Below, piece by piece: positions 18,917 through 36,419 of a DNA stretch of 64,000 nt. Numbering within the stretch: position 1 is the first letter of the stretch; each line of letters opens with the position of its first letter. Source of the stretch: Escherichia coli (GTDB taxonomy: Bacteria; Pseudomonadota; Gammaproteobacteria; Enterobacterales; Enterobacteriaceae); assembly GCF_029227855.1 (NCBI RefSeq), contig NZ_CP074356.1. One strand, given 5' to 3'. A program made the position numbers and the translations under genes. Under the pieces are notes generated by a model, which did not search any database, was not told the DNA's origin, and was given only the letters and a program-made list of their open reading frames with translations.

Positions 18917-19246
18917 ATGGAAACTACCAAGCCTTCATTCCAGGACGTACTGGAATTTGTTCGTCTGTTCCGTCGTAAGAACAAACTGCAACGTGAAATT
19001 CAGGACGTTGAGAAAAAGATCCGTGACAATCAGAAGCGCGTCCTGCTGCTGGACAACCTGAGTGATTACATCAAGCCGGGGATGAGCGTTGAAGCAATCC
19101 AGGGCATCATCGCCAGCATGAAAGGTGACTATGAAGATCGTGTTGACGATTACATCATCAAAAATGCCGAGCTCTCCAAAGAACGCCGCGATATCTCCAA
19201 AAAGCTGAAAGCTATGGGCGAAATGAAAAACGGCGAAGCGAAGTAA
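18917..19246 (+). CDS. yeeX: UPF0265 protein YeeX
   Basis: [50 protein letters not shown]... (109 aa) from the internal Met. Confidence 0.85.
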
Positions 19247-19260
19247 TTCCTGTTTTATTC

Positions 19261-19288
19261 AATGAGGGTTGCCCGGCAACCCTCATTG
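19261..19288 (+). terminator. Hairpin terminator between convergent yeeX and pduV
   Basis: aatgagggttgcccggcaaccctcattg perfect stem-loop followed by a T-rich tract. Confidence 0.6.
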
Positions 19289-19346
19289 CTCATTGTTTCT
19301 TTTCTGTGTATCACCGTCATCATTCCCATCTGATAACCTATTGAAA

Positions 19347-19790
19347 TTAGCGACAGCCTTCTTCTGTATGCAGCAAGGCAAAAAGTTCTGCAACTCCATT
19401 GTTATTAACCGCACTGGTTACTAACACATTGTGCGCTCCAGCTTCCCGTAACCAACTTTTCACCAAAGATATTTGTTCCATGCTGGCTAAATCTGCTTTG
19501 GTGACTACTCCAATGACCGGGCGATTCATTGACGAGGTAAAGCCTGGCGAAAAAGGGGACCACGGTGCGTCCGCATTAAGCACCAGGGCGATAATGTCCG
19601 CTTCGCAGGCGCTGACCAACAGAGCACTGTAGAGGCTGCGGTTTTCGAGGTATTCGCCTGGTGTATCAATGGTGGTCGGGGACCAGACGATTGCCTGCGT
19701 TTTCTGATAATGAATATTTTCGCCACGCAGACATTGCGTGAGTGACGTTTTTCCGCACTGGCTGGGGCCGATGAGCATCATACGTTGCAT
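19347..19790 (-). CDS. pduV: Propanediol utilisation GTPase-like protein PduV
   Basis: 147-aa ORF with P-loop [18 protein letters not shown]; EutP/PduV family; last gene of the pdu operon here. Confidence 0.85.
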
Positions 19791-19794
19791 AACG

Positions 19795-20145
19795 TCAGGT
19801 CCGCGTAATGGGGCAGGCGGTAAAGCGCATCATTTCACCCAGCGTACGGGTAACCTGGCTAAGTGCATATTCAATGGCAGAAACATCACCAGTCAGCACT
19901 ACGGCACCGGTAAAACGATCAAGAAAACCGATCTCTACAGCGCCTGATTTTGTGGCGATATCACATGCGATGATAGATGCTTCGCTGGGGGTAATTGTCA
20001 GAATGCCAATAGCAGAAACGGTGTCTGGTAAACCCAATTTCTTAAACAGATCCTTCCCTGGATTGGCGATGACATGTGCCAGCGTGACCTGCTTACCAGG
20101 GACATATTCCTGAATCATCCGTTCAGTTGTGTGCTGAGTTGTCAT
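19795..20145 (-). CDS. pduU: BMC shell protein PduU
   Basis: [39 protein letters not shown]... (116 aa); ATG 20143-20145 overlaps pduT stop. Confidence 0.85.
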
Positions 20146-20699
20146 TATCCCTCCACCATCTGACGCCACATGGCTTCATGTGGACGGGCAATCACCGACC
20201 GATAGACCAACAAACCTTTTTCTCCCGCACGCTCGCTGGCGACAGAGACCGCGTTATTAACATCTGAAATATCGCCAGCAACCACCATGTAGCATTTACC
20301 GCCAATGCCAAAAGCCATATGCACGCGAACAAGAATGACATTCGCAGCTTTGACAGCACAATCGGCAGCGTCAATGCAGGCGGCGACACTCCAGGTTTCG
20401 ACTACGCCGACAGCCCGGTGCTGTTCAACTTGGTTCAGTCCGCTGGTTGCAGAAAGGAGGCTGGGATGAATATTCGGCAGGACAAGACTGTCGACCAGCA
20501 TTTCACCAGCAAGGGAAGCACCGCTGTTGATGGCCTGTTGCACCGCGCCCACATCGCCACCGAGCATCAGCAGAAATTTTCCGGGGCATAGCGTTTTGCT
20601 GACCAGTAACTCAACGTTGGCGCTTTTCAGCATGGCGTCGCCGGTTTCCATCCCTTTCGCGATACTGCTAAGTTCTAAAATACCTACCGCTTTCGACAT
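20145..20699 (-). CDS. pduT: BMC shell protein PduT (tandem BMC domain)
   Basis: 184-aa [45 protein letters not shown]... Confidence 0.85.
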
Positions 20700-20701
20700 C
20701 G

Positions 20702-22045
20702 TTAACCTCTCACAAGCGTAATCGCGTTTTCTGTCACATCGCTGACCATGCCATCAATACTGGCATGAATGGGGGCACCTAATGTGCCGTGTGGAATTTG
20801 ACCTACACATTGCCCATGAACGACGCGATCGCCTTTTTGTACACACGCAATTGCGCTGGCACCGATGTGCTGGCGTAACAATAACGTCACTTTTTCGGTC
20901 TGAGGCACCTGTTCAGACAATGGCGCATCCTGATACCACGGGGTTAAGCCAAGTCTGGTTACCAGCCGTTTTACGGGAATCAGTCGATAATTTGCCATGG
21001 GATCTGCAGGATTTAAGGTACCTTCGTAACGGAGATTTTGTGCGCGTAATTCTTGCTTAAGCAGGCGGTTTATGCGCATTGGTGAAATTCCTACCGGACA
21101 GGCGACGCTGGCGCAGACGTTGCACTCCGAACAGGTGAGCGCCGTCAGTAACAGTTGTGGCGTAGCGAGCTGTTGGTAGTTAACCGCACGTACTAATAAA
21201 TGGGGTGCCAGTTCGTGACCGATTAAATGACGTGGGCAGAGATCGGTACACAAGCGGCATTGCTCACAAACAGTTTTCGCGACGGCAAGTACGCTGCGGT
21301 CATTCTGCATTCGACGTTGGATCAGTGAATGAGAGTTGGGTAAAACCAGCAAGCCGCCAGTGGTTTTGCTGACTGGTGTGTCGAGCGATGTGATCAAACT
21401 TCCCATCATCGGCCCGCCATTGATAAAACCAGGAGCATCCACTGTTGCGCCGCCCGCCAGCGCCAGGACTTCACGTAAAGACATGCCGATGGGGACGGTT
21501 ACCGTTATTGGTTTCGCCACTGCACCATTAACGGTGAGTGTGCGGCGCGTCACTGGATACTGTTGCTCGACGGCTCTGGCAATATTAAGTACGGTTTGAA
21601 CATTATTGACCACCACACCGACGTTAACGGGTAATGCAGCGGGTGGAACACGGCGACCAGTTGCCATCCAGATGGTCAGCACTTCGTCTCCTGCGGGGTA
21701 AACGTCGGGCAAAATATGCAGGCGGATATCCGGTGGTAACAGTGGTGTGAGTGCGTTTATTGCCCGTTGATATTTCTCTTTCAGCGCGATGATTCCGCTA
21801 CTGGCCCCGGTGGCTTTCATCGCATAGTGAACACCGCGAAGCAGGCGGCTGGCTTGCTGCGCCATTAACTGTTGATCCACTTTCAACATTGGTTCGCATT
21901 CCGCCGCATTCACCAGGAACGTGTCAACACGCGCTTGTAGCTTAATATGGGTTGGGAAACCTGCGCCGCCAGCACCCACGACACCAGCTGCCTGTACTCG
22001 CTCGCGGATGGTCTGGTCGTCGCAGGAGGTTAACTCGACGTTCAT
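20702..22045 (-). CDS. pduS: Cobalamin reductase PduS (RnfC/NuoF-like Fe-S flavoprotein)
   Basis: 447-aa ORF with GAGGAGFP nucleotide-binding motif and two CxxCxxC-type Fe-S cysteine clusters. Confidence 0.9.
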
Positions 22046-23154
22046 AACAACTCCTCGAGCAGTTCTGCAATAGCGGTGGCATCAGCCGTACGCGGGTTGG
22101 TACGCAACGTTGCATCCGCCAGTGCCGCCTGAACCATATCTGGTATGCGTATTGACCATTCTGCTTTTTTTTCTTTCAGCACATTGGTAAGAGTCGGTAG
22201 CTTACAGGTTGTTTTAAGCTGTTCAATATGTTGAATAAGTATATTCAGGCTGGCGGTGTCATTGGCGTTGTCCGGGCATAAATGGCACGTTTTCGCCAGC
22301 CGGGCGTAGCGTTTGGCAGCGCGCGGATCGCCAGCATTAAAGCGGATAACCGCCGTGAGCAGGAGCGCATTCGCCAGGCCGTGTGGCAGATGAAACTGTC
22401 CGCCGAGTTGATGAGCAATTGCATGGTTTAATCCCAGTCCAGCTTGGCTAAAGGCCATTCCTGCAAGTGTCGATGCATTATGCATTTTGCCACGGGTGGC
22501 GAGACAATCGCCTTTCTTCACTGCAGTGGGCAGGTATTGAAAAACAATTTGCACGGCTTTTTCGACCAGTGCATCCGTGAAGTCGCTGGCGCGGGGAGAA
22601 ACATAAGCTTCAAGCGCATGGGTTAAAACATCCATCCCGGTATTGGCCGTTATCGCCGGTGGCACGCTGACGATCAGAGATGGATCAAGGATCGCGATAT
22701 CCGGATAAAGTGCATTATCGAAAAGGGGATATTTAATCCCTTTCTCAGGATCGCTGATGACACAAGCACTGGTCACTTCGGAACCGGTACCGCTGGTGGT
22801 AGGAATGGCTACGCAGGTTTCAATTTCAATGCCACACTGGCGACCGAACCAGACAATCGCTTTTGCGGCGTCCAGGGCAGAACCGCCGCCAAAACCGATA
22901 ACCACATCCGGGCGTAAAGTCTGCATTTGCGCAATGCCTTTCACCACGGTCTGGATAGTTGGGTCGGGCGTTATTTCGCTAAAAATACTAAGACGATTAC
23001 TGTCGGGCAGCGCCTGATGCAACGTGTTAATGAGTGGTGAGCGTGCCAGAAAGACGTCGCAAATAATCCAGATGTGTTTATGAGAGAAACGGCTAAGTAC
23101 CTTGAGACTTCCCGGTCCGCTGTATAAACGCGTCTGCAGTGAAAAAGTATTCAT
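22042..23154 (-). CDS. pduQ: 1-Propanol dehydrogenase PduQ (iron-containing alcohol dehydrogenase)
   Basis: 370-aa ORF with GFGGGSALDAAKAI motif. Confidence 0.9.
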   Translation of the reverse strand: MNTFSLQTRLYSGPGSLKVLSRFSHKHIWIICDVFLARSPLINTLHQALPDSNRLSIFSEITPDPTIQTVVKGIAQMQTLRPDVVIGFGGGSALDAAKAIVWFGRQCGIEIETCVAIPTTSGTGSEVTSACVISDPEKGIKYPLFDNALYPDIAILDPSLIVSVPPAITANTGMDVLTHALEAYVSPRASDFTDALVEKAVQIVFQYLPTAVKKGDCLATRGKMHNASTLAGMAFSQAGLGLNHAIAHQLGGQFHLPHGLANALLLTAVIRFNAGDPRAAKRYARLAKTCHLCPDNANDTASLNILIQHIEQLKTTCKLPTLTNVLKEKKAEWSIRIPDMVQAALADATLRTNPRTADATAIAELLEELL

Positions 23155-23164
23155 TTCCGTTTCT

Positions 23165-24550
23165 CTAGCGAATTGAAAAGCCGCTGGTTAACACGCAGCG
23201 TCGTGAGCGGGCAAAAGTCCGTGCTGACGTTGTCCCTTCTCCGGTCGGTGTTGCAATGGTAAAGGTCGTAAAGCCTTCGCCGCCGACGCCAATACCCGCC
23301 CAGGAGGGGCCGTTTTTGACAAAGATTGAGGTTTGCATAACGCGTGCGGTAAGGTTGAGCCGTGAGACGTTCTGCGAGTGCATAATTGCCGTGTGGTGCA
23401 AGCCGTCTTCCACTTTCAGCGCCAGGGTGAGAGCGCTATCAAAATCGTTGACCTTCACAATGGGCAGCATTGGCATCAGTTGTTCACAAGTAACCCAACT
23501 ATCATTGGCGTCGACAACAGCAATCAGTAGGCGCGGCGCTTTTGCGGGCAAAGGGAGGCCTGCCGCTTCCAGCAAGGCTGATGGGCTTTTCCCAACCAGT
23601 TTTTTGTTGGCGCTACCGTCTGGCAGGCAAATTGCACGCAATTTCTCCGTTTGCTCATAGTTAAGAAGAAGCGCGCCAAAACTTTGCATCTGCTGAATTA
23701 AATAATCTGCCACTGATGCCACGACAATCAGGCTTTTTTCAGCAATACACGGCAGGTTGTAATCAAATGAAGCGCCGTTGATGATGTCCTCGGCGGCTTT
23801 CACAATATCCGCCGTTTCATCGACGATGCACGGAGGGTTACCCGCTCCGGCACCAATCACTTTCTTGCCACTTTTCATTCCCATGGCGACGATCCCCGGA
23901 CCGCCGGTAATCGCCAGAACGCTGATTTTAGGGTGCGCCATCATCTGTTCGGTTGCAGCAAAGGTCGGTTCAGATACGGTAACGATCAGGTTATGAATGC
24001 CACTACAACGAAACGCGATGTCTTCGATTGTGGTAATCAGTTTTAACGAAACGTATTTGGCTCCCGGGTGTGGACTGAAGTAGACGCTATTACCTGCTGC
24101 CAGCATGCTGATGCTGTTGTTAATGATGGTTTCCGTGGGGTTGGTGCTTGGCGTGACCGAGCCAATAACCCCAAACGGGGAGTATTCAAACAAAACCATG
24201 CCACCATCACCGGTTAGTGCAGTGGTGGTTAAATCTTCAATTCCTGGCGTGTTATCAAGTGCCGCTTTGTTTTTTAGGTACTTATCTTCTTTATTTCCCA
24301 TCCCCGTTTCTTTGGCGCTTTCTTCTGCCAGTTCGGTCAGGCGGGGTATTAATTCTTCGCGAATGGCGCTGATAATGGCGCTACGGGTTTTAAGCGGGCA
24401 CTGTTGAAAGCGTAAAAAGGCCTGGTGTGCTGCGCAGACCGCTTCATCAACAGTCTGGAAAATAGCGTTTCTTTGCATTCGTTGCGTAGCGGGGGCAAGC
24501 TGCTCACGCAGAATATTGCGGATCAGTGTTTCTAATTCAGAGTTATTCAT
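23165..24550 (-). CDS. pduP: CoA-acylating propionaldehyde dehydrogenase PduP
   Basis: 461-aa aldehyde dehydrogenase-family ORF in canonical pdu position between pduO and pduQ. Confidence 0.9.
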   Translation of the reverse strand: MNNSELETLIRNILREQLAPATQRMQRNAIFQTVDEAVCAAHQAFLRFQQCPLKTRSAIISAIREELIPRLTELAEESAKETGMGNKEDKYLKNKAALDNTPGIEDLTTTALTGDGGMVLFEYSPFGVIGSVTPSTNPTETIINNSISMLAAGNSVYFSPHPGAKYVSLKLITTIEDIAFRCSGIHNLIVTVSEPTFAATEQMMAHPKISVLAITGGPGIVAMGMKSGKKVIGAGAGNPPCIVDETADIVKAAEDIINGASFDYNLPCIAEKSLIVVASVADYLIQQMQSFGALLLNYEQTEKLRAICLPDGSANKKLVGKSPSALLEAAGLPLPAKAPRLLIAVVDANDSWVTCEQLMPMLPIVKVNDFDSALTLALKVEDGLHHTAIMHSQNVSRLNLTARVMQTSIFVKNGPSWAGIGVGGEGFTTFTIATPTGEGTTSARTFARSRRCVLTSGFSIR

Positions 24551-25554
24551 TGGTTTACTCCCACGTTAATTGCCGCCATTGCGCTTTGGGCAATATCCAT
24601 GTCTTGTTCAACGCTACCACCGCTGATGCCAAGCCCCCCGAGCAATATTCCGTCACGCCAGAGGGGGAAGCCGCCACCAAAGGTGACGACTTTGCCTTGC
24701 ATATGGCTTTCGAGCCCGTAAAGCGGCGCGCCGGGTTGCACGGTATCAGCAAGTTTGTGGGTTGCCGTTTTCATCGCCACGGCAGTCCAGGCTTTTTTCG
24801 GTGCCAGTTCACTGCTGACCAACAGGGCATCAGGCATCCGCCAGGTAACACTTTCTGTTCCGTTGGCATCAACAATGCTGATGACAACGGGAATATGCAG
24901 TTCATCCGCGCGCATTGCCGCACTACGAATGAGCTGGTGAAGATCCTGAAAAGTGAGCGGCATTGTGCGTTCCTTCAATGCTGGTGTGTGGTTGGCTTTG
25001 TGATAACGTTTTGTGATTTCCTGAATTATCAGGTTTTGATGAGCGACGTTGTCTTCCACGCGGGCGAGGGCATACAGGCAATCGGAAAGTCGGTTGATAT
25101 AGTGCAGCAAAACATTCCGGACGGTGATTTCCGTTGTCAGTTCAACCAGACGTCTTTCAGCACGTCGAGCCACCGTGCGGGCGAAATGCATACGGCTTGC
25201 AGCTTCACATCGCCCAGGCAGAATGAAGCTGTGAACTGGGGGGACGGCGTTCATTGCGCTATCGATCGCGTTTTCCAGCGCGGCAATTTCTTCCGTACCG
25301 ATGTAACGCAGCTGCGCTGACGGCTGTTCGCTTTCACTGGCAAGTTCGGCGCTAAACCAAAATATCTGTTGTTGAATGGCTTCCAGTAAGATGCGATGGC
25401 TTTCGATGGCGGTGGCGCAATAACACAGACTGAGTGTCGCGTTCAGTTCATCCAGCGTGCCATAGGTTTCGACACGTAGATGAGTTTTGCTGACGCGCTG
25501 TCCGGTAAATAAAGACGTACTTCCTGAATCACCTGTTCGGGTATAAATTGCCAT
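24547..25554 (-). CDS. pduO: ATP:cob(I)alamin adenosyltransferase PduO
   Basis: 335-aa ORF MAIYTRTGDSGSTSLFTGQRVSKTHLRVETYGTLDELN... (PduO-type N-terminal domain). Confidence 0.9.
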   Translation of the reverse strand: MAIYTRTGDSGSTSLFTGQRVSKTHLRVETYGTLDELNATLSLCYCATAIESHRILLEAIQQQIFWFSAELASESEQPSAQLRYIGTEEIAALENAIDSAMNAVPPVHSFILPGRCEAASRMHFARTVARRAERRLVELTTEITVRNVLLHYINRLSDCLYALARVEDNVAHQNLIIQEITKRYHKANHTPALKERTMPLTFQDLHQLIRSAAMRADELHIPVVISIVDANGTESVTWRMPDALLVSSELAPKKAWTAVAMKTATHKLADTVQPGAPLYGLESHMQGKVVTFGGGFPLWRDGILLGGLGISGGSVEQDMDIAQSAMAAINVGVNQ

Positions 25555-25565
25555 CTTTCAGCTCC

Positions 25566-25841
25566 TTAGCGCGAAAGCGTATCGACAATGCCGACCACTG
25601 CCAGGTCGATGGCCTCGTTAGGGCCGGAAAACACATGTCTGGCGCTGGAACCACTGCTGAGGAGTACCAACTCACCAACGCCTGCGCCGACTGAATCAAC
25701 GGCAACTTCGTCGCCGGTTAATGGCGTGAGAGGCAGTTCGCCGTCAGCACTGACCCGGCGAACCAGCAGCAGTTTTTTCCCGATCAGAGATGGTGATTTT
25801 TGCGTGGATACTACCGCGCCAGTGACTCGAGCCAGATGCAT
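25566..25841 (-). CDS. pduN: BMC vertex (pentamer) protein PduN
   Basis: 91-aa [33 protein letters not shown]...; EutN/CcmL family. Confidence 0.85.
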
Positions 25842-25844
25842 AGG

Positions 25845-26336
25845 TTACTCCTGCCTAATTAACTGAATATTTCGGGTAATTGCCGCTTCACGAGCCAGTG
25901 CGGTCACACAACATTTCCGCTGTAACACCAGTATTCCCGAGCTTAACTGTGCGATATCGGCATAACTTAAAAGTCGATCACGATGAAGGTAGATCGGTTG
26001 CCCTTGTTCGTCGCACCAGCTTAGCGGTAGACGGGCGAGAGTCTTCAATTCAATGGCGTTCAGGAAATGACGCTGCAACGACAATTGAATGTGCATTCCC
26101 CAGGCTAACGCTTCGTGTATCTGGATTGCTGCTCGATCTGACGTTTCGTTCTCCGCAAGTTGTCGCAGCAGCGGCAGATCGACATATCGGATTTGTAATG
26201 ACGCATACTGATGAACGCTCTCTTGAACGCTGGCGTCTCGCAGTTGAAAAACAGTCAGCACGAGTGCTTTTCTCGCACGTTGTTTAAGGCGAAAAACCAC
26301 CTCGTCAACAATACGTTGCATCAGCATGTTATTCAT
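25845..26336 (-). CDS. pduM: Microcompartment-associated protein PduM
   Basis: 163-aa ORF in canonical position between pduL and pduN. Confidence 0.8.
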   Translation of the reverse strand: MNNMLMQRIVDEVVFRLKQRARKALVLTVFQLRDASVQESVHQYASLQIRYVDLPLLRQLAENETSDRAAIQIHEALAWGMHIQLSLQRHFLNAIELKTLARLPLSWCDEQGQPIYLHRDRLLSYADIAQLSSGILVLQRKCCVTALAREAAITRNIQLIRQE

Positions 26337-26965
26337 GGCACTGACACCAGTGTGGCAAAAACGTCAGGGCTATCAGCGCCTGCGGCGTTGGCCTCATCGG
26401 TATCAATATGCATTTCAAGACGCATATCCGGAGAGACGCGAACAGCGACGTTTTCGAATATCAGTCGTCGCTCACCACCTTCAATGGCAACCGCCACTTT
26501 ATCGCCATGCGTAACGCCATAAATCAGGGCATCCAGCGGAGACATATGAATATGCCGTTGCGCGACAATGACGCCAGATGTGATCTCCAGTTCCGCAAAT
26601 GGGCTTATCAAACGAATCCCCGGAGTGCCGCTGAGATCGCCTGACATGCGTAGCGGGGCGGTGATCCCTAACGTTCTGGCGTCCGTCCGGGAAATTTCCA
26701 CCTGGCTTGCATTGCGTAGCGGCCCCAACAAGCGAACGTTGTGCAATTTGCCTTTTGGTCCCTCCAGCGTAACAACCTGTTCAGCAGCGAATTGGCCAGG
26801 TTGCATTAACGGCTTTTTCTCGCTAATCGGTTGTTCAGGAAAAAGACGCAAATAATCCGCTGTTGAAAGATGAATATGGCGACTGGAAACGCCCAGTGGG
26901 ATAGGGCGCTCGCGCATCTCATCCAGAATCTGGCTCACTGTTTCCTGCAGGGTTTGTTTATCCAC
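26333..26965 (-). CDS. pduL: Phosphate propanoyltransferase PduL
   Basis: 210-aa ORF MDKQTLQETVSQILDEMRERPIPLGVSSRHIHLSTADY... Confidence 0.85.
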   Translation of the reverse strand: MDKQTLQETVSQILDEMRERPIPLGVSSRHIHLSTADYLRLFPEQPISEKKPLMQPGQFAAEQVVTLEGPKGKLHNVRLLGPLRNASQVEISRTDARTLGITAPLRMSGDLSGTPGIRLISPFAELEITSGVIVAQRHIHMSPLDALIYGVTHGDKVAVAIEGGERRLIFENVAVRVSPDMRLEMHIDTDEANAAGADSPDVFATLVSVP

Positions 26966-26967
26966 TG

Positions 26968-27390
26968 CTACTCCCCTCGCTTATTGGCGTACAGGCAAAG
27001 TGAGCGGGGCTCACCTTTTTGCCGCTGACATGCCGGGTCAAGACACAAATTACAACTGATAATCTCTGAGGTGACGGTTGTTGCTGGTGTTTTGCTTGTT
27101 TCAACCGTCACGGTCAATGCTTCAATTGTGTGGGGCAGAATGCCGTCTCCCGGGCGGGCAATCACTTTGTGTGCGACAAGGCCATTTCGCTGTCCGGCGA
27201 AACTGGCTCCCGTCGCGATCGCCGCATTAACCGAGGCGACGTCACCGGTGATTTTGATGAGCGTCCAGCCTGAGCCATTGGTCTTCTCAAGGCCAACCAG
27301 CGTGATGGACGCGGCTTTTGCCATAGCGTCTGCGCAACTGATGGCGAGAGCCAGACCACTGACTTCAAGTAATCCCAGTGATTGCTTCAC
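26968..27390 (-). CDS. pduK: BMC shell protein PduK
   Basis: 140-aa ORF with N-terminal BMC domain MKQSLGLLEVSGLALAISCADAMAKAASITLVGLEK... Confidence 0.8.
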   Translation of the reverse strand: MKQSLGLLEVSGLALAISCADAMAKAASITLVGLEKTNGSGWTLIKITGDVASVNAAIATGASFAGQRNGLVAHKVIARPGDGILPHTIEALTVTVETSKTPATTVTSEIISCNLCLDPACQRQKGEPRSLCLYANKRGE

Positions 27391-27413
27391 GCTGTGCTCC
27401 TTAGCGAATGGGG

Positions 27414-27689
27414 TTATGCTGATTTAGGTAAAATAGCCTCAACATCACTGTGTGGGCGCGGGATGACATGGCAGGATTTCACTTCGCCAACGGCGCTTGC
27501 GGCGGCGCTTCCTGCATCAACGGCGGCTTTTACTGCGCCAACATCGCCACGGACCATCACCGTAATCAGACCCGAACCAATCTTTTCATAGCCAACCAGC
27601 TGCACGTTGGCGGATTTAACCATGGCATCTGCAGCTTCAATTGCGCCAACTAACCCTTTTGTTTCAACCAGTCCTAGTGCGTTGTTCAT
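27414..27689 (-). CDS. pduJ: BMC shell protein PduJ
   Basis: 91-aa [63 protein letters not shown]... Confidence 0.9.
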
Positions 27690-27708
27690 ACTGCATTTCT
27701 CCTGTGGA

Positions 27709-28059
27709 TTATGAGTGGAGTTCCCGGAAGGGAATCCCTTTTACCAGGCGGGCAGCGTTAGAGCCAATGCTGCGCCGGGCATGGTTATCTTGTTGATACA
27801 TCAGCGTAAACAGTGGCGCTGATGCCGGTAAGTTTTTGTAATGCACAATCAGTTTTTCCTGATCGCAGGCAATGCCAACCAACAGGGGAGATTGACTAGC
27901 AGCCAGCCAGGCGCTATCGATAACTTCACCTGACGGAATGTGTTGAATGCGAAAGGGAATACCTTCCTCTTCAATGCCAAGAAGCACCTCATCCCATATA
28001 GTGATGCAGTTACCGATCTCCATGACGACGATGGCTGGTGCACGCTCTTTACTTTCCAT
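27709..28059 (-). CDS. pduH: Diol dehydratase reactivase small subunit PduH
   Basis: 116-aa ORF overlapping the 3' end of pduG, canonical position. Confidence 0.85.
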
Positions 28060-29881
28060 GAATCGACTCCTTGTGCCAGGCGATGAGTAGCCCAGTAGCT
28101 ACCGCGTTGCGCGGACCTTCGCTACCACGGATATTCCCCCGTCCGGCGACCAATCGATAATGCGCCAATGCATCGGTGACTAACTGCGGTACTTCGAAAT
28201 CCAGCGAAGAACCGCCCACCAGAACGACGAACGGAATATCGCGAATATTTCCGGCAGGGCTTACCTGACGTAGCGCGCGCAGGGCATTGGTTACGAAGAC
28301 ACGCTCTTTCGCACTGCGGCGGACAGCGCGTACTTTTTCCAGCGTCAAATCACCGGGAATGGGCACCAGTTCGTCGGGTTTCACTACACAGACGCGGGCA
28401 AATACATGGGGGGATAGGGGAGTAGGGAAGAACTGAACGCTGCCATCTTCATGGCGTAAGTGGAACAGGCTTTCTACTTTTGCCAACGGGTACTTTTTGA
28501 TTTCTTCTGCCAGATAACGATCATTTAAGCCCAGCTCACGAGCGATAATCATCGTTACCATGTCGCCCGCTCCCGCAAGGTGAGTGGCAACAATTTCTCC
28601 TTTCTGATTGATGATGGAGGCATCGGTAGAGCCTGCACCTAAGTCCAGAATTGCCAGTGGACGTGTGGTTCCAGGGGTAGTCAAGGCCCCCTGAATGGCG
28701 GCTTCTGCTTCTGCGCCTCCGACCTGAACATCAACATGCAGTTTTTGCTTAATTTCACTGGCGATCATTGCCATTTGCAGACGGTCGGATTTCACCATAG
28801 AGGCAATACCCACAGCCTGTTCCAGTGAAAATTCACCTGCCAGACCGCCGGTTACGCTGACGGGGACAGAGGTATCTATCGCCAGCAAATCCTGAATAAA
28901 AATTTCGTTGCTGGGTTTGTTGGTCAGTTCCGCCATGGTCTGGCGAACATGTTCCAGCATTCCGCCGATGTTGGTGCCTGGTTCTCCCGTCACGTTTTCC
29001 AGTTTTGGGCACTCACCGACCGCTTTCATAATGGCATCGGCACCAGCAGCTACATCAACGCGCGTTGTGCGCCCGGCAGAAAGCAGTTCGATATTTCCGG
29101 CGGGTATCGAACGGGCTTTAACGTCGCCAGAAGGCGTTTTCACTACCACTGCTGAACGGTTGCCGATTAGCGCCCGCGCGACAGGAACAATATTTTTAGT
29201 CTCTTCAGCATTGAGGGCGAAAACGGTGGCAATCCCATACGGGTTAGACAGGGTTTCGATAACTTTCCCGGGAACGGCAACTTCAATTGCAGCCAGCATG
29301 CCGAGCGGAATACGATCGATGTAGAGGACTTCATCAACAATAGGTACAGCAATTTCCAGGCGGTTACTGACCAGCACGCCATCGTCGCGTTGCAGAATAA
29401 CGCCAGTCAGCTGATATCCGGCACGTACGGAGGCGTTTATCATCGTCGCGATATCGGCAAAATCAAATGCCGATGACACCACCAGGATGTAAGGTGTGTC
29501 CGCCGGGCGTGTTAATAACTCTTGCGGAGTGATGGTGAGCCCTACGCCCAGCCCCACTCCGCCCGGAGTTTTCGGGTTGTGACCGATCATGGTTGATTCG
29601 GTGATGATGGTTTCAGTGATGGTTTCCATCGCCACATCACCAATGACCGGAGTTGCTTCGTTGATACGAATAAGCGAAATATCGCTAACATTGATGCCGA
29701 CTTTTTTCGTTGCCTGTGCGAGCGCCTCCTGAATACCATGGACGTTACGCAACGTACCTTTAATTCCGGTGGTTTCCGCCAGGGCGCTACTCACGAACGA
29801 CAACTCTCCAGTTGCACTGAGCGTTGCCAGCGCAACCTCTGTTGATGAGTTGCCGATATCAATGCCTGCTATATATCGCAT
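28049..29881 (-). CDS. pduG: Diol dehydratase reactivase large subunit PduG
   Basis: 610-aa ORF MRYIAGIDIGNSSTEVALATL... (actin-like ATPase N-terminus). Confidence 0.9.
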   Translation of the reverse strand: MRYIAGIDIGNSSTEVALATLSATGELSFVSSALAETTGIKGTLRNVHGIQEALAQATKKVGINVSDISLIRINEATPVIGDVAMETITETIITESTMIGHNPKTPGGVGLGVGLTITPQELLTRPADTPYILVVSSAFDFADIATMINASVRAGYQLTGVILQRDDGVLVSNRLEIAVPIVDEVLYIDRIPLGMLAAIEVAVPGKVIETLSNPYGIATVFALNAEETKNIVPVARALIGNRSAVVVKTPSGDVKARSIPAGNIELLSAGRTTRVDVAAGADAIMKAVGECPKLENVTGEPGTNIGGMLEHVRQTMAELTNKPSNEIFIQDLLAIDTSVPVSVTGGLAGEFSLEQAVGIASMVKSDRLQMAMIASEIKQKLHVDVQVGGAEAEAAIQGALTTPGTTRPLAILDLGAGSTDASIINQKGEIVATHLAGAGDMVTMIIARELGLNDRYLAEEIKKYPLAKVESLFHLRHEDGSVQFFPTPLSPHVFARVCVVKPDELVPIPGDLTLEKVRAVRRSAKERVFVTNALRALRQVSPAGNIRDIPFVVLVGGSSLDFEVPQLVTDALAHYRLVAGRGNIRGSEGPRNAVATGLLIAWHKESIHGK

Positions 29882-29890
29882 AGTTCGTCC

Positions 29891-30409
29891 TTAATCGTCG
29901 CCTTTCAGTTTTTTGCGCTCGACATAAAGTTCCGCAGCTTCACGGACAAATGCAGCACAAATTTTGGCCTGATAACGCCGTTCAAGATCGTCAGCAATGG
30001 CAATAAGTTCTTGCTTAGTCGAACGATAAGGGCGTAACGCATTGTAGATTTCGAGGATGCGATCATCCGGTACTGAGGTAAGCTCAGCGGCGCGTTCAAA
30101 ATTCATCGCCAGGCGATCGCGACCAGCATCTCTGGCAATCGCGGCCTGAATACGCAATGTTTCAGGGGTTATACGCATATCCTGGGCGGTGACGTTATCG
30201 CTGAGTACATTTTCCAGAGTGAAATCGTCGAGCGTTTTATTGGTCGCCGTTTTAACCCATTCCGGATGTTTATTTGCCAGCGGATAATCCGTCACTTTGG
30301 CGCTCTGTATTGACGCGTTGGGTGCCGCAGAAACAGGAGCTGCATCCTGTAAACTGTTCATGCGATTCAACACGTCCCTGACCATCGACTCAATTGCATC
30401 GGTATTCAT
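29891..30409 (-). CDS. pduE: Propanediol dehydratase small (gamma) subunit PduE
   Basis: 172-aa ORF in canonical order after pduD. Confidence 0.9.
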   Translation of the reverse strand: MNTDAIESMVRDVLNRMNSLQDAAPVSAAPNASIQSAKVTDYPLANKHPEWVKTATNKTLDDFTLENVLSDNVTAQDMRITPETLRIQAAIARDAGRDRLAMNFERAAELTSVPDDRILEIYNALRPYRSTKQELIAIADDLERRYQAKICAAFVREAAELYVERKKLKGDD

Positions 30410-30423
30410 GAAGGTTTCCTTTG

Positions 30424-31092
30424 TTAAAACGTCACGCGCAGTTCTTGCGGTTTTTTGCCAGTGACCACGTACTTCGTCTCTTTAATATGCAAAATGGCAG
30501 ATTTGGCCTGGTATTTCGGCCGCGCCATTTGATCGTTGAGGGTCGGCACCGGTTGTGGAGACTCACGCTTTGCATAACGCGCGGCGTTTTTGCCAATCTG
30601 ACGATAAGTTTCCAGCGTCAACAAAGGCGCTTGTGGGAATAGTTCCAGGTTAGACAAGGGAGGAAGACCTTGCTGGTGGATAACCGTTGTGCCTTTCGAC
30701 TGAATACCGATAGCAATACCTGAACCACTAAGACGATCGCCTTCGACTGCTACGAATGCGACATCGGACGATTTAAAGCAGCGAATCACACGGGCTTTAA
30801 TGCCTTCTTCTTCGATACCAGCAATCACTTCGCGCAAGATGTTTTTATGCGGAATACCGATGATATTGACGGTTTGCGCCAGGCCGAACGCCGGGCCTAC
30901 AGCAATAATGACTTCATCTTGCTGAGTGCCTTGTTGGGCTTCGCCAATTTCGGCCAGAAAAGTTCCGGTATCTGGCGCGGAAGAGACAGTTGCACAGGCA
31001 GGTGCGCGAAATGAAACGGGCTTGTCGCTGGTTTGCATTTCTGCCAGCACGTCTTCGATAATCTGACGCAGTAATTTTTCGTTAATTTCCAT
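30424..31092 (-). CDS. pduD: Propanediol dehydratase medium (beta) subunit PduD
   Basis: 222-aa [22 protein letters not shown]... Confidence 0.9.
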
Positions 31093-31101
31093 TTCTCACC
31101 C

Positions 31102-32766
31102 TTAGTCAATTTCGTTGGGATCAAGTGCACCGGGAATATTTTTGATCTCTTCCCAGCGTTCCCCTTGCAGGCGGTAACCTGTAGCCGGTCCGGCGTAATC
31201 ATTGACGTCATTGACCGCAGAGAGCACTTGTCCGTCATCGACGATGATGGCTGAGGTATGGAGATAATCGCCGGTCAGTTTTGCTTTTTGCATGTTGAGC
31301 ATGTCTTGGGCGACATCGGTAAAACCGCCTTGCGCCAGGGCTTTCACCACTTCCAGGCTGTTCCGGTTTTTATTGATAATCTCCTGGGCGAACTTGATGT
31401 CTTCCACAATATTGCGCTCAGGCATATCTTTTGAACCGTGGGCATAGGTTGCCGCTTCGACTTCTTCATCGGTAATAGGCGGTAGTCCCATACCGGCAAA
31501 GACAGCCTGTAAAGCGCGAGCGGCTTTATTGCGGATAGCGATAACATCTTCTTCGCGTACTGGTCGCAGGCCGCCATCAACCTTCAGGTCACGCTGAATG
31601 ACGTTGTAATCATCGAAGTCTTCAGCATCTTCGTTTGAACCAGCAAACATGTTGTCGTAGTTCGGCACAGCGGAAAAACCGGAAGAGATAAAGTCGGTAC
31701 CTGGCAGAAACTGCATCAGGAAACGTGCGGTACGGCGCATATCCGAGTGGGTAAAGGTCTGGTCATTACTGGAGGCGCATTCCAGATCCAGCGATGAGCA
31801 AATTAAGTTTTCCGCTAATACTGCGCGGATGCCTGATGGCACAGCCGATGGAACACCGATGCAGCTTACCGAACCATTCTGTAGACCCTGAACTCCTGCG
31901 GCTTTGGTGATGTAAATGCAACGAGCCTCGAGATAAAGCATTGATTTGCCTTCCGCGTAACCCATCTGTACTTCAGAGCCGGAGCCGGAAGTAAAGCGCA
32001 TTTTTAAGCCGCGAGACGCATAGGATGACGCGAGAAATCCTTTTGACCACGGGGTGTCATCGCCATCGGTGAAAACAGGTTCTGTACCATAGACAGAAAT
32101 TGTTTCGGCGTAACAGGTGTGGCCTAACATACCGAGTTTCAGTTCGGTGGCTTCTTCCAGTGAACACTGGGTCAAGACGCCCGGACGTCCCACCTGTGAG
32201 CCGACCAGCAGGGCGATGGCGTTGAACGGGGCATAGCGAGCAACGGCAACGGTGGTTTCCTGTTCATCAAACCCGCGCCATGCGCCTTCAGCTGCGTCGG
32301 CGGCAATTTGTACCGGGTTATCTTTGACGTTGGTGACGTGAGCCTGTTGTGATGGTGTTCGACGGGCGCGCATTTTCTGCATCGCCATCATCATCTCTAC
32401 CACGTTCATCTGCGAAACAACTTCGACGATTTTTGCAGGCGTCATTGCTGTGGTAAGGGGAACGATATCGCTACGTTTGACATTTGGATCGCACAACATA
32501 TTGGCAAGTTTTACCGAATCCATCGCGATGACTTCTTCTGCACGCGCGAGATTGATGCCGTAGCGGGCGATAAAGTGGTCGATCAGGTCAAACTGGCTGG
32601 CGGGTTTTCCATCCAGTTCGGTAACGACGCCGTTAACAATTTTGATTGACGGTTTAGGATCGTTCGGGCTTTCCATCGCAATGAAGCCTTCTTCAATCCA
32701 CTCTTTAACGAAACCGTCCTGGTTGACCGGGCGTTTTGCCAGTGCTTCAAATCTTTTCGATCTCAT
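31102..32766 (-). CDS. pduC: B12-dependent propanediol dehydratase large (alpha) subunit PduC
   Basis: 554-aa ORF MRSKRFEALAKRPVNQDGFVKEWIEEGFIAMESPNDPKPSIKIVNG... Confidence 0.95.
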   Translation of the reverse strand: MRSKRFEALAKRPVNQDGFVKEWIEEGFIAMESPNDPKPSIKIVNGVVTELDGKPASQFDLIDHFIARYGINLARAEEVIAMDSVKLANMLCDPNVKRSDIVPLTTAMTPAKIVEVVSQMNVVEMMMAMQKMRARRTPSQQAHVTNVKDNPVQIAADAAEGAWRGFDEQETTVAVARYAPFNAIALLVGSQVGRPGVLTQCSLEEATELKLGMLGHTCYAETISVYGTEPVFTDGDDTPWSKGFLASSYASRGLKMRFTSGSGSEVQMGYAEGKSMLYLEARCIYITKAAGVQGLQNGSVSCIGVPSAVPSGIRAVLAENLICSSLDLECASSNDQTFTHSDMRRTARFLMQFLPGTDFISSGFSAVPNYDNMFAGSNEDAEDFDDYNVIQRDLKVDGGLRPVREEDVIAIRNKAARALQAVFAGMGLPPITDEEVEAATYAHGSKDMPERNIVEDIKFAQEIINKNRNSLEVVKALAQGGFTDVAQDMLNMQKAKLTGDYLHTSAIIVDDGQVLSAVNDVNDYAGPATGYRLQGERWEEIKNIPGALDPNEID

Positions 32767-32784
32767 AAATCTGCCTCAGAGAAT

Positions 32785-33597
32785 TCAGATGTAGGAAGGG
32801 CGATCGTTTTTCGGTGTATCGCCGAGAGTCGAAAGCACGGTTTTACCGATTTCGCGTGCGGAGATGACCGCCTGGCGGACTGCGCCGGAGTCACCCGAGA
32901 TAATCAGAATGACTTCATTGCTGTAGCTGGTGCCTTGAGCGGGGGAGCTGTATGCCACAACATCCACATTGGCGGACTTCAGCGCGGTGTCTGCCATCAG
33001 AACACCCACAGCAGCCGGAGCGCCGACAATAACGCCGCAAGCCCGTCCCAATGGTGCACCAAACGCTTTTTCCAGTGCATAGCTGGCGCGGGCGGTATAT
33101 TGCAGCTCAAGATGTCCGGCTTCGTTGGCATAGACATCGCCAAAGGTTCGATCGAGTTCTTTCAGGGCAACTTCAATACCGCGTTTCACGTCGGAAACAT
33201 CGTTGCCACCTAAGAGGATCAATGAGCCGTGTCCGGCACCGCCTTTAGTATCGCGAGGAAGTTCAATGCTAATAACTTCAGTGTTGGTGGCTTTTACCGC
33301 TTCATCAGCGGCCATAATGTGTGGACCTGCGCCAATACGCGCACCCAGAATGCCAATGGAACGATAGCGTTTTTCAAGTTTCATTGCGTCCAACAGGGCG
33401 CTATCAACGTTCGCAATGACCAGACCTACAGTGTCGCCAATAGCGGTGCCAACAAATTCTGTTAATGTGCAGCTTTTTTCTGCCATAGCCGTCTCTCGTA
33501 TTTGATGAGTGGTTTTCGGGAGAACCTCATGCTCTGGCGTCGCTACGCGAGCGATGACCTGCGCCATGATCTGTTCGACCAGTTCATTGCTGCTCAT
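32785..33597 (-). CDS. pduB: BMC shell protein PduB (tandem BMC domain)
   Basis: 270-aa ORF in canonical position between pduA and pduC. Confidence 0.9.
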
Positions 33598-33878
33598 GGG
33601 TTAATTCCCTTTGGTAAGATTTTTTCGACATCGGTATGTGGGCGGGGAATAACATGTACGGCTTTTACTTCGCCGACGTTACGCGCAGCTGCGGCACCTG
33701 CGTCTGTTGCCGCTTTTACCGCCCCGACATCACCACGAACGATGACGGTCACCAGCCCGGAACCTATTTTTTCGTAGCCGACCAGCAAAACATTTGCCGA
33801 CTTCACCATGGCGTCTGCGGCCTCTATGGCGGCAGTTAAGCCTTTGGTTTCTACCATTCCTAACGCTTCTTGTTGCAT
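33594..33878 (-). CDS. pduA: BMC shell protein PduA
   Basis: 94-aa [64 protein letters not shown]...; first gene of the pdu operon. Confidence 0.92.
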
Positions 33879-34389
33879 AAAGACCTCGCCTGGATTTTTT
33901 TGACGATATGACTATAAAAAAAAGCGAGGAAAAAGAATGGCTGACTTAATCGGCTAATGAGAAAAATTAATAGAGAACAAATATTATAAAATTGCTTTTA
34001 TGAACTATATGTTGTTAATTTATTAGTTGTTTTGTGGATATTTCAATGTGAATTAATTGCGTTGGCTAGTGAGTTTAATCGCGAGTAATATTTCGTTGAG
34101 TTTAGTTCGAGGAAGGAACTGTGATATTTGTTTCAATTTTATTATATCATGATGGCAATTTTTTATTGTGAAAGTTTGACAGTAATTATTACTTTCAACA
34201 CTGATTAACGCTGTGTTGCATGATTCGGCAATGACAATAATTTGTTATGTTAGCACGATTTTTACACGAGTCTGTCATGCATGTTGGCAATATTTTCTGC
34301 AGAGCAATTTTTTATAGTTGCGCTCGGTATACACAACAATCAGCGCGTAGTTGGCTGATAAAGAAAAACTCCGTAAAGAAGGTGTCACT
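33879..34389. promoter_or_regulatory. AT-rich divergent pduA / pduF-pocR control region
   Basis: ~510 bp markedly AT-rich intergenic DNA between divergent pduA and pduF; in Salmonella the equivalent region holds the PocR-dependent pdu promoter. No individual site is called. Confidence 0.5.
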
Positions 34390-35199
34390 ATGAATGATTC
34401 ACTCAAGGCGCAATGCGTTGCCGAGTTTTTAGGCACCGGACTGTTCCTCTTTTTTGGCATTGGTTGTTTGTGCGCCCTGAAAGTTGCCGGGGCAAGTCTG
34501 GGACTGTGGGAAATTTGTATCATTTGGGGGTTAGGGATTTCGCTTGCTGTTTACCTTACGGCAGGTATTTCCGGCGCTCATCTCAACCCGGCAGTTACCA
34601 TTGCTCTGTGGCTGTTTGCCTCTTTCCCAGCCCGTAAAGTGCTGCCATTTTGTGTGGCGCAATTAGCGGGTGCTTTTGGTGGTGCGATTCTGGCATATTC
34701 TCTCTACAGCAGTTTATTTACCGATTTTGAATCTGCTCACAATATGGTGCGTGGTAGCGCAGAAAGTTTACAACTCGCCAGTATCTTCAGTACTTATCCG
34801 GCAGCGGCGATTAATGTATGGCAAGCTGCGTTGGTCGAAGTGGTCATAACGTCCATGTTAATGGGGTTGATTATGGCGTTGACCGATGACGGTAATGGCG
34901 TACCCAAAGGACCACTTGCGCCTTTACTTATTGGTATTCTGGTTGCTGTTATTGGTGCTTCTACCGGACCATTAACCGGTTTTGCCATGAATCCAGCGCG
35001 TGATTTTGGACCTAAGATTTTCACCTGGCTTGCGGGGTGGGGAGAAATTGCGATGACTGGTGGACGCAATATTCCTTATTTCATTGTACCCATTATTGCA
35101 CCGATCATTGGGGCATGTGTTGGTGCGGCGATTTATCGCTATCTCATTGCAAAGAATTTACCTGTCAATAGTGTAGCGCCTAAAGAAATTAGCGAATAA
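34390..35199 (+). CDS. pduF: Propanediol diffusion facilitator PduF (aquaglyceroporin / MIP family)
   Basis: ORF MNDSLKAQCVAEFLGTGLFLFFGIGC... with two NPA motifs (SGAHLNPAVT and FAMNPARDFGP). Confidence 0.88.
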   Translation: MNDSLKAQCVAEFLGTGLFLFFGIGCLCALKVAGASLGLWEICIIWGLGISLAVYLTAGISGAHLNPAVTIALWLFASFPARKVLPFCVAQLAGAFGGAILAYSLYSSLFTDFESAHNMVRGSAESLQLASIFSTYPAAAINVWQAALVEVVITSMLMGLIMALTDDGNGVPKGPLAPLLIGILVAVIGASTGPLTGFAMNPARDFGPKIFTWLAGWGEIAMTGGRNIPYFIVPIIAPIIGACVGAAIYRYLIAKNLPVNSVAPKEISE

Positions 35200-35401
35200 C
35201 GAAATAATCTGGCAGTTATAAACGTTTATTTTTTTACTGTTTGTGATCTGCTTTCCGAACTTATTAAAAAGTCTCCCGCTTCATGGAGGCTTTTGTTATT
35301 GTCCTTTGTGCTTCTCGTCAGTAAATCATCAGGGATGATGTGAAGATTAAATGTAAAACAATTGTTTTGCTATAACAATAAATTAACTGGGAGGTTTTAT
35401 C

Positions 35402-36316
35402 ATGATTTCTGCGGCGACACTTAATTCAGAACTCATTAATAAAATCGCGCAGGATTTTGCGCAGGCGACCAGCCTTGCGGTTGTCGTGGTCAATATTCAC
35501 GGCGATGAAATTTCCGAGCTGTTTAACTTCACTCCATTTTGTCAGATGATGCGGCAACACCCTCAGCTAAGCACTCGATGTCGCATGAGCGATCGTTGTG
35601 GGGGCCTGGAAGCCTCTAAATCCGATCAGCCTTGTATTTATCGCTGTCATGCCGGATTAACCGATTTCTCTATTCCACTGGTAATCGCCGGGCATTTAGT
35701 CGGTTTTGTATTGTGCGGGCAAGTTCGTCTGCGTAATGATGATGTCGATTTGGTCGATATTCTGAATGTCGATGATTGCTGGCAGGCAGATCCCGAATTA
35801 CTTAATGAATTCCGCAAAGTTCCTGAGATGGATTACTCAAGAGTTATGGCCTCTGCTGATTTGTTGAAGTTGATTGTGGAAAATTGCCTCAAAAAACAAC
35901 TCAATTTTGTGGTTATTAAAGAGAACAAATTTCAGTCAGATTCGGTGCGCCAGACTCGTGCGCCTAATCCCCACGACAATAAAATGAAAAAAGCTTTACG
36001 CTATATTGATGCGCATTTATCAGACGATTTGCGTCTGGAAGATGTCGCCTCGCACGTTTATCTAAGTCCTTATTATTTCAGTAAGTTATTCAAGAAATAC
36101 CATGGAATCGGTTTTAATGCGTGGGTAAACCAACAACGGATGGCCAGCGCTCGTGAGTTACTGTGCCATAGTGACTGGAGCATCGCCAGTATTGCGCGTA
36201 ATTTAGGTTTTTCGCAAACCAGTTATTTTTGCAAAGTTTTCCGTCAGACTTATCAGGTTACGCCGCAGGTGTATCGACAGCAAGTGAGTGAAAATGCGGT
36301 GATGGAAACGGTATAG
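35402..36316 (+). CDS. pocR: AraC-family regulator PocR (activator of pdu and cob)
   Basis: 304-aa ORF MISAATLNSELINKIAQDFAQATSLAVVVVNIHGDEISELFNF... with C-terminal AraC-type HTH. Confidence 0.9.
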   Translation: MISAATLNSELINKIAQDFAQATSLAVVVVNIHGDEISELFNFTPFCQMMRQHPQLSTRCRMSDRCGGLEASKSDQPCIYRCHAGLTDFSIPLVIAGHLVGFVLCGQVRLRNDDVDLVDILNVDDCWQADPELLNEFRKVPEMDYSRVMASADLLKLIVENCLKKQLNFVVIKENKFQSDSVRQTRAPNPHDNKMKKALRYIDAHLSDDLRLEDVASHVYLSPYYFSKLFKKYHGIGFNAWVNQQRMASARELLCHSDWSIASIARNLGFSQTSYFCKVFRQTYQVTPQVYRQQVSENAVMETV

Positions 36317-36419
36317 AGTAAATGCCCCAAAAAAAGAGGACGGTTTAAATAAACTCTGCAATGAATAATTAACGTTATTTACCTGTTATGGGAAAAGTGA
36401 AATCAGCTCATAACATACG

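Follow-up and report, generated by a model that had tools for sequence, protein, structure and literature searches.

The pdu operon of Salmonella enterica LT2 and Citrobacter consists of 21 genes in the order pduABCDEGHJKLMNOPQSTUVWX. The last two genes encode a kinase of the acetate/propionate kinase family (PduW) and a GHMP-family L-threonine kinase (PduX), and a set of cbi genes is situated between the cob leader riboswitch and cobU. PduW converts propionyl-phosphate and ADP to propionate and ATP, and PduX makes the aminopropanol-phosphate linker solely for de novo B12 synthesis. Under aerobic conditions propionyl-CoA can go into the methylcitrate cycle, for which the kinase is not required. 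Both PduW and PduX are cytosolic proteins rather than components of the microcompartment, and PduX has been characterized as an L-threonine kinase for B12 synthesis (PMC7181861). In Salmonella, AckA phosphorylates propionate, and TdcD is propionate-specific (PMC3475010).

In E. coli, pdu is already known as an accessory operon, with links to adherent-invasive E. coli (AIEC) as well as to certain canine and ExPEC lineages. The published list of LF82 pdu genes has pduV as its last entry, and transcription and induction of this operon have been recorded (PMC6379400, Table 4). That E. coli lacks PduW is documented in earlier work. No counterpart was reported for the species (PMC3475010), and the only PduW homologue of the pdu-positive AIEC strain ZvL2 is TdcD (PMC7360682). 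A search of the literature for the pduA-pduV gene string of E. coli or for the yeeX/pduV junction returned nothing specific.

The window, which is the whole 64-kb stretch of DNA that was analysed, contains a pdu operon on the minus strand (19347-33878) with 19 intact genes, pduABCDEGHJKLMNOPQSTUV. The original prediction of an E. coli backbone in which a complete pduA-pduV operon separates yeeX from cobU is confirmed by annotation, profile matches and alignment with K-12, and the coordinates it gave are correct. The features are as follows; where no evidence is given, the assignment is from the RefSeq annotation together with a profile match.

18917-19246, plus strand: tmaR (yeeX), DUF496, convergent with pduV (RefSeq annotation of a near-identical genome; Pfam DUF496, E = 2e-45)
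19347-19790, minus strand: pduV, EutP/PduV small GTPase-like protein, last gene of the operon (NCBIfam TIGR02528, E = 1e-55)
19795-20145, minus strand: pduU, circularly permuted BMC shell protein, EutS-like
20145-20699, minus strand: pduT, tandem-BMC shell protein
20702-22045, minus strand: pduS, RnfC-like 4Fe-4S cobalamin reductase
22042-23154, minus strand: pduQ, iron-type 1-propanol dehydrogenase
23165-24550, minus strand: pduP, CoA-acylating propionaldehyde dehydrogenase (NCBIfam NF011927, 717 bits)
24547-25554, minus strand: pduO, two-domain ATP:cob(I)alamin adenosyltransferase
25566-25841, minus strand: pduN, pentameric vertex protein, EutN/CcmL family
25845-26336, minus strand: pduM (NCBIfam NF011957, E = 9e-74)
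26333-26965, minus strand: pduL, phosphate propanoyltransferase (NCBIfam NF011652)
26968-27390, minus strand: pduK, BMC-domain shell protein with a C-terminal extension
27414-27689, minus strand: pduJ, major hexameric shell protein, 100% identical to the Citrobacter braakii protein
27709-28059, minus strand: pduH, diol dehydratase reactivase small subunit (Pfam PF02288, E = 1e-31; RefSeq annotation)
28049-29881, minus strand: pduG, diol dehydratase reactivase large subunit (TIGR04491, 960 bits)
29891-30409, minus strand: pduE, diol dehydratase small subunit (NF011971, E = 9e-108)
30424-31092, minus strand: pduD, diol dehydratase medium subunit (NF011616)
31102-32766, minus strand: pduC, B12-dependent diol dehydratase large subunit, the signature enzyme (NF011979, 1074 bits)
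32785-33597, minus strand: pduB, tandem-BMC shell protein (NF011944, E = 9e-143)
33594-33878, minus strand: pduA, hexameric shell protein, first gene of the operon
34390-35199, plus strand: pduF, propanediol diffusion facilitator, divergent from pduA (RefSeq annotation)
35402-36316, plus strand: pocR, AraC-type regulator of pdu/cob (RefSeq annotation)
36408-36582, plus strand: cobalamin riboswitch in the cob-operon leader position, with no cbi genes downstream (Rfam RF00174, 109 bits)
36732-37238, plus strand: open reading frame with an N-terminal CbiG-like fragment, inside which K-12 homology restarts at 37067 (NCBIfam NF004463, E = 1e-18)
37372-39748, plus strand: cobU-cobS-cobT, late cobalamin assembly and cobinamide salvage (RefSeq annotation)

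The 19 pdu open reading frames are contiguous and tightly packed, with intergenic gaps of -11 to +23 nt. All 19 are full length relative to the references used, are matched by NCBIfam and Pfam profiles, and align end to end with orthologues from Citrobacter and other Escherichia. Identity to the C. braakii proteins ranges from 54% for PduM to 100% for PduJ, and no gene is disrupted. In JNEC-KY178, a genome separated from the window by about 12 SNPs over 59 kb, the RefSeq annotation of the locus agrees. The signature enzyme PduCDE and the reactivase PduGH are present, with PduC, PduD, PduE and PduG full length and above the curated NCBIfam cut-offs and PduH identified by its Pfam family. The three classes of shell protein are all represented, as hexameric BMC proteins (PduA, PduJ, PduK and PduU), tandem BMC proteins (PduB and PduT) and the pentameric vertex protein PduN. 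Profile matches also identify the metabolosome core of acylating aldehyde dehydrogenase PduP, phosphotransacylase PduL and alcohol dehydrogenase PduQ, and RefSeq names and profiles identify the cofactor recycling proteins PduO (adenosyltransferase) and PduS (reductase) as well as the divergent pocR/pduF pair. By its sequence, the locus is a native Escherichia-type pdu locus that is predicted to encode a B12-dependent 1,2-propanediol microcompartment.

The locus differs from the 21-gene LT2 type in that pduW and pduX do not follow pduV. When the window was searched by tblastn with Citrobacter PduW and PduX, no homologue was found (best E = 0.4), which bears out the prediction that both genes are missing at the pduV end. 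A relocation within the window was considered and dropped, as matches at E values up to 10 were at chance level. The spacer between pduV and yeeX contains no remnant of either gene that could be detected by blastn at a word size of 7 or by local alignment with Citrobacter; outside the end of pduV and the terminator of yeeX, nothing aligned. Nor is a recognizable pduW or pduX remnant present in the 58 nt that separate the hairpin described below from the pduV stop (19289-19346).

The spacer between the convergent tmaR/yeeX and pduV genes is 100 nt long (19247-19346) and contains a perfect 13-bp hairpin at 19260-19288, with a minimum free energy of -22.8 kcal/mol and a z score of -3.3. A U-rich tail follows this hairpin on the plus strand only, and for this reason the hairpin is assigned as the intrinsic terminator of tmaR/yeeX. 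Transcripts of pdu would at most form the hairpin, with no U-tract behind it, and a bidirectional terminator was dropped as a reading because of this missing tract. The operon had been described as followed within about 100 bp by a terminator and convergent yeeX; the spacing, the convergence and the hairpin are correct, but the terminator belongs to yeeX. Spacer and hairpin are the same in E. albertii, E. whittamii and other E. coli lineages, and the stem in E. whittamii carries a compensatory change (G>A / C>T). In Citrobacter, an equivalent hairpin is located 3' of pduX.

Citrobacter was used as the reference for pduW and pduX because no Salmonella locus was among the matches of a contig scan with PduV, which came from Escherichia, Citrobacter and relatives; the Salmonella gene order was taken from the literature. 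The products of Citrobacter pduW and pduX belong to the acetate-kinase and GHMP-kinase families in Pfam. All loci of Citrobacter, Pseudocitrobacter, Pluralibacter and relatives for which the sequence continues past pduV have the order pduV-pduW-pduX. Wherever the contigs of Citrobacter, Pseudocitrobacter and relatives extend far enough, yeeX-yeeA is found downstream of pduX.

The same pdu locus as in the window is present in 636 of 5426 complete E. coli genomes. Identity is at least 98.8% over 17000-37500 in the 30 best-matching genomes. In a sample drawn at even spacing from the ranking, six genomes were pdu-positive, and each of them was at least 96.9% identical over 19247-20145. The junction itself, comprising the spacer and the 3' end of pduV, was found in 5414 of the 5426 genomes, including pdu-negative ones and K-12. 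This conserved arrangement of the pduV stop, a hairpin-containing spacer of about 100 nt and the stop of yeeX is shared across the genus. When the 5426 genomes were searched with Citrobacter pduW-pduX DNA, at a sensitivity of about 65-70% identity that a very divergent pduX-like gene would escape, pduX was found in none and pduW in one, strain 48.

These results suggest, with a probability that we put at about 0.88, that the native 19-gene Escherichia pdu locus is the 21-gene Salmonella/Citrobacter operon minus pduW-pduX, produced by one old, clean deletion in an ancestor. The deletion would extend from about the pduW start codon, which lies inside the last codons of pduV, to the stop codon of pduX, situated at the base of the hairpin that terminates yeeX. 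Since the deletion is fixed in all three of E. coli, E. albertii and E. whittamii, it was most likely a single event in the Escherichia ancestor. Because no remnant is present in 19289-19346, the direction of change is drawn from outgroup parsimony rather than from a scar, and on this basis loss is favoured over gain.

The opposite direction, in which pduA-pduV is the ancestral enterobacterial form and pduW-pduX was gained in the Salmonella/Citrobacter lineage, is consistent with an Escherichia spacer that lacks a detectable remnant, but we consider it improbable. The order pduV-pduW-pduX also occurs in Pseudocitrobacter and in an unclassified Proteobacteria MAG, in both cases followed by yeeX-yeeA, and in Pluralibacter, where no yeeX or yeeA was found in the available downstream sequence. 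The missing segment runs from the start of pduW to the stop of pduX, boundaries that a deletion would be expected to have, and the cbi side of the same genomes shows deletion scars in the form of the riboswitch and the CbiG-like fragment. In addition, PDU1 loci from other phyla commonly encode PduW, with only the PDU1B sub-type reported to lack it (PMC4207490).

That pduW and pduX were moved elsewhere in the genome instead of lost is very unlikely. Strain 48 does carry a pduW at another site of the chromosome, but this copy stands at the end of an additional pdu island, complete and of foreign origin, with IS66/IS21 on its flanks, and it is not accompanied by pduX. The 64-kb window holds neither gene, the search elsewhere that the original prediction had called for gave no pduW or pduX DNA in the other 5425 genomes, including JNEC-KY178, and published protein searches of one pdu-positive E. 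coli yielded TdcD only (PMC7360682). A recent strain- or lineage-specific truncation that leaves a defective or unusual locus, as might be supposed from the presence of pduW-pduX at the same position ahead of yeeX in Salmonella and Citrobacter, is refuted by the distribution and has next to no probability, since the same end occurs in 636 pdu-positive E. coli genomes and the junction in 5414 of 5426 genomes, K-12 among them, as well as in E. albertii and E. whittamii.

The state without pduW and pduX is therefore normal and inherited in the whole genus Escherichia and is not a peculiarity of the strain. The original prediction implied that the truncation is a notable feature of this locus, which does not hold, as it is standard in pdu-positive Escherichia. 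Its importance is small beyond correct annotation: the E. coli pdu operon normally ends at pduV.

The ancestral deletion of pduW-pduX and the removal of the cbi genes are probably parts of one reductive history that left the riboswitch, a CbiG-like fragment and cobUST. The identification of this fragment is based on a single NCBIfam match, which covers positions 1-125 of the 351 in the NF004463 profile; there was no match in Pfam. We read the open reading frame as a putative scar of the deleted cbi genes.

PduX would be dispensable in Escherichia because the genus has also lost the cbi genes and is limited to cobinamide/B12 salvage. The role of PduW is probably covered by TdcD and/or AckA, which would convert propionyl-phosphate in its place. 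Of the 5426 E. coli genomes, 5391 carry tdcD, whose product shares 44% identity with PduW. The missing genes should not be counted as a defect in metabolic models or in comparisons with Salmonella. Genome-scale models should route propionyl-phosphate through TdcD/AckA and assume a need for external B12 or cobinamide.

The CP4-44 prophage of K-12 had been placed at the position of the pdu locus, in agreement with the alignment, which breaks off at window position 19529 and restarts at 37067 with CP4-44 in between. K-12 has the 12.7-kb prophage in place of 19530-37066, that is, the rest of the pdu genes, pduF, pocR and the riboswitch, whereas the cobU and yeeX flanks are identical and the 3' end of the CbiG-like open reading frame is also retained. 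The 100-nt spacer remains as well, together with the final 183 nt of pduV (19347-19529), annotated as yoeF, which is best read as a pduV 3' stump. In an evenly spaced sample, most pdu-negative genomes stop exactly at 19529, like K-12. The near-universal pduV 3' scar next to yeeX, the shared end base in most of the sampled pdu-negative genomes and the CbiG-like fragment lead us to propose tentatively, at somewhat under even odds, that the pdu-positive state lacking pduW, pduX and cbi is ancestral to E. coli, and that about 88% of the species may have departed from it through a single replacement event, spread by descent or recombination. If this is true, substrate-level phosphorylation during propanediol fermentation in pdu-positive strains would rely on the threonine-operon kinase TdcD or on AckA, and the ATP yield from 1,2-propanediol would be tied to regulation beyond the control of PocR.

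Compared with the Salmonella LT2/Citrobacter operon, the window has the same order and orientation of pduA-pduV, the same divergent pduF-pocR pair and the same neighbourhood of yeeA-yeeX and the cob leader riboswitch, but it lacks pduW and pduX and all of the cbi genes except the CbiG-like fragment. Loci of the PDU1B type in the LoClass taxonomy, compared by gene content alone, are likewise without the ancillary propionate kinase PduW (PMC4207490). There is no difference of substance from the loci of pdu-positive E. coli such as AIEC LF82, ZvL2 and ST372. The published gene list of LF82 stops at pduV as in the window (PMC6379400, Table 4), and ZvL2, reported to be without a PduW orthologue (PMC7360682), matches it as well.

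The window is E. coli chromosome; over 59 kb, it and the annotated genome JNEC-KY178 (NZ_AP045174.1) differ at about a dozen SNPs. To the left of the pdu locus the gene order is the his operon, yefM-yoeB, yeeZ, yeeY, plaP, tsuAB, sbcB, dacD, sbmC, yeeA and tmaR/yeeX. To the right, pduA is followed by pduF, pocR (plus strand), a cobalamin riboswitch, a short ORF, cobUST, ldtA, tRNA-Asn genes, nac, cbl, yeeO and an integrase-bearing island.

Landmarks of the pdu locus, in window coordinates
18917-19246, plus strand, tmaR/yeeX
19347-19790, minus strand, pduV
33594-33878, minus strand, pduA
36408-36582, cobalamin riboswitch

The operon contains 19 ORFs (pduA, B, C, D, E, G, H, J, K, L, M, N, O, P, Q, S, T, U and V), separated by -11 to +23 nt and free of internal stops. 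The ORFs give whole-length NCBIfam or Pfam profile matches, with bit scores of 1074 for PduC, 960 for PduG and 717 for PduP; PduB, PduE and PduM match equivalog models. Alignments with their orthologues in Citrobacter braakii, E. albertii, E. whittamii and other E. coli likewise run over the full length. The complete pduA-pduV operon in an E. coli backbone proposed by the original prediction is confirmed. Conservation along the operon is very uneven: identity to C. braakii is 100% for PduJ, 92% for PduU and 91% for PduN, but only 54% for PduM (window 25845-26336), 67% for PduK and 73% for PduH.

Outside the operon, the pduF-pocR intergenic region (35258-35341, minus strand) matches the enterobacterial sRNA STnc230 in Rfam with 71 bits (gathering score 50). 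Two genes show SNP-level differences from JNEC-KY178. In the window, the tsuA/yeeE ORF (12753-13811) is intact at 352 aa; the JNEC-KY178 copy, with a mismatch at 12906, is flagged 'internal stop'. An RHS core protein ORF (50572-54174) stops at 54174, compared with ~54753 in JNEC-KY178, and there is a mismatch at 54172. The region 40800-49600, with three tRNA-Asn genes and nac, cbl and yeeO in between, resembles a typical integration hotspot at asn-tRNA genes; beyond the third tRNA-Asn lie integrase genes with frameshifts and an island of low- and high-GC segments, including an RHS element of GC 0.60-0.64.

In C. braakii, the next gene after pduV is pduW (404 aa, acetate-kinase family), with an overlap of 16 nt at the end of pduV; then come pduX (288 aa, a GHMP kinase) and convergent yeeX and yeeA. 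When the Citrobacter PduW and PduX were searched against the 64-kb window by tblastn, no match was obtained at E <= 1e-8, and at E <= 10 only chance-level matches appeared (best E = 0.4), so their predicted absence after pduV holds. At the nucleotide level, E. coli and Citrobacter are homologous through pduV to about the pduW start codon and again from the pduX stop codon, at the foot of the terminator hairpin; between these points, 2.2 kb of Citrobacter stand against ~60 nt in E. coli, without recognisable similarity.

The stop codons of pduV and yeeX are 100 nt apart (19247-19346), in agreement with the terminator and convergent yeeX predicted within ~100 bp. This spacer holds a perfect 13-bp hairpin at 19260-19288 (plus-strand fold -22.8 kcal/mol, z = -3.3). 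A U-rich tail is present on the plus strand only, and the hairpin is therefore the yeeX/tmaR terminator; read from the pdu side, it has no U-tract. In E. whittamii, the stem differs by a compensatory G>A / C>T pair, and Citrobacter has an equivalent hairpin between pduX and yeeX. The E. albertii pduV (L005 10001-10432) encodes 143 aa, four codons short by a point change, with spacer and hairpin conserved.

Scanning one genome from each species gave 28 loci. In E. albertii, E. whittamii, further E. coli lineages and an Escherichia sp., pduV or its stump is directly followed by yeeX. All loci of Citrobacter, Pseudocitrobacter, Pluralibacter and relatives with sequence past pduV have the order pduV-pduW-pduX, and yeeX-yeeA follow pduX wherever the contig reaches that far. 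The simplest history is that pduW-pduX were deleted once, in the ancestor of Escherichia. A 5.5-kb contig assigned to a Planctomycetota MAG (JADFIX010000334.1) has a pduV-like fragment and, ~110 nt away, a yeeX whose product shares 92% identity with the enterobacterial protein; contamination of that bin by Enterobacteriaceae DNA is the probable explanation.

A sensitive blastn search for the Citrobacter pduW-pduX DNA matched only seven E. coli genomes, six of them through short tdcD matches. The seventh is strain 48, from deer, where pduW ends a second, foreign pdu island elsewhere in the chromosome (NZ_CP166879.1 5243959-5275121) from which pduX is absent. It is the sole pduW-bearing genome among complete E. 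coli. The proteins of this pduA-pduW island are 54-98% identical to the native ones. The island is flanked and followed by IS66 and IS21 fragments and lies close to cdiA and toxin genes; the second copy was evidently acquired horizontally.

Of 5426 complete E. coli genomes, 636 carry the whole 20.5-kb segment 17000-37500 without interruption. A 283-nt stretch (the spacer and the last 183 nt of pduV) is found in 5414 of the 5426, in 5359 at >=80% coverage. The K-12 gene yoeF ('putative uncharacterized protein'; L030 18576-18932) is a 3' stump of pduV corresponding to window 19347-19529; its position against tmaR is just that seen in the window, with CP4-44 in place of 19530-37066. Among 45 evenly spaced E. 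coli genomes, 6 carry the complete pduV-pduU segment, 34 end exactly at 19529, 3 end <=9 nt short of it, and one each ends at query positions 399 (window 19645) and 104 (window 19350). The end base shared by most sampled pdu-negative genomes suggests that a single replacement event, or a single recombined allele, spread species-wide.

The cob side of the locus tells the same story as the pduW/pduX loss. In Salmonella, a cobalamin riboswitch leads the cbi-cob operon. The window keeps the riboswitch; in the ORF after it, residues 24-141 match positions 1-125 of a 351-position CbiG model (E = 1e-18); all other cbi genes are missing before cobU, which comes directly after this stretch (36408-37371). 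Judged from this arrangement, cobUST of pdu-positive E. coli may still be under riboswitch/PocR control. In K-12, the cob leader was lost to CP4-44.

The genes of the locus code for an entire microcompartment pathway. From family assignments made here and Salmonella work (PMC7181861), 1,2-propanediol would enter through PduF and be converted by PduCDE to propionaldehyde inside the shell. PduP would then form propionyl-CoA and PduL propionyl-phosphate, with PduQ recycling NAD+ through 1-propanol formation and PduGH, PduO and PduS keeping the cofactor active. The last step, propionyl-phosphate to propionate and ATP, is performed in Salmonella by cytosolic PduW (PMC7181861); in E. coli, we infer, it would fall to TdcD and/or AckA. 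Of the 5426 E. coli genomes, 5391 have tdcD, whose product shares 44% identity with PduW. In Salmonella, TdcD is specific for propionate, and AckA has ~1/10 the efficiency with propionate that it has with acetate (PMC3475010). PduX acts as L-threonine kinase when B12 is made de novo (PMC7181861, citing Fan and Bobik 2008) and would thus not be needed in a lineage with cobUST only.

The facts of the original prediction stand, and its point of interest is removed on the very ground it had named, because this ending is the standard form in Escherichia, shared by those 636 E. coli genomes, E. albertii and E. whittamii. A literature search found no explicit account of the pduV-yeeX junction or its genus-wide distribution. 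It is stated in print that E. coli has no PduW counterpart (PMC3475010), a pdu-positive Crohn's isolate is reported to have only TdcD (PMC7360682), and the published LF82 gene table ends at pduV (PMC6379400). A recognised sub-type of PDU loci lacks PduW (PMC4207490). The feature is already known and adds no new kind of system.
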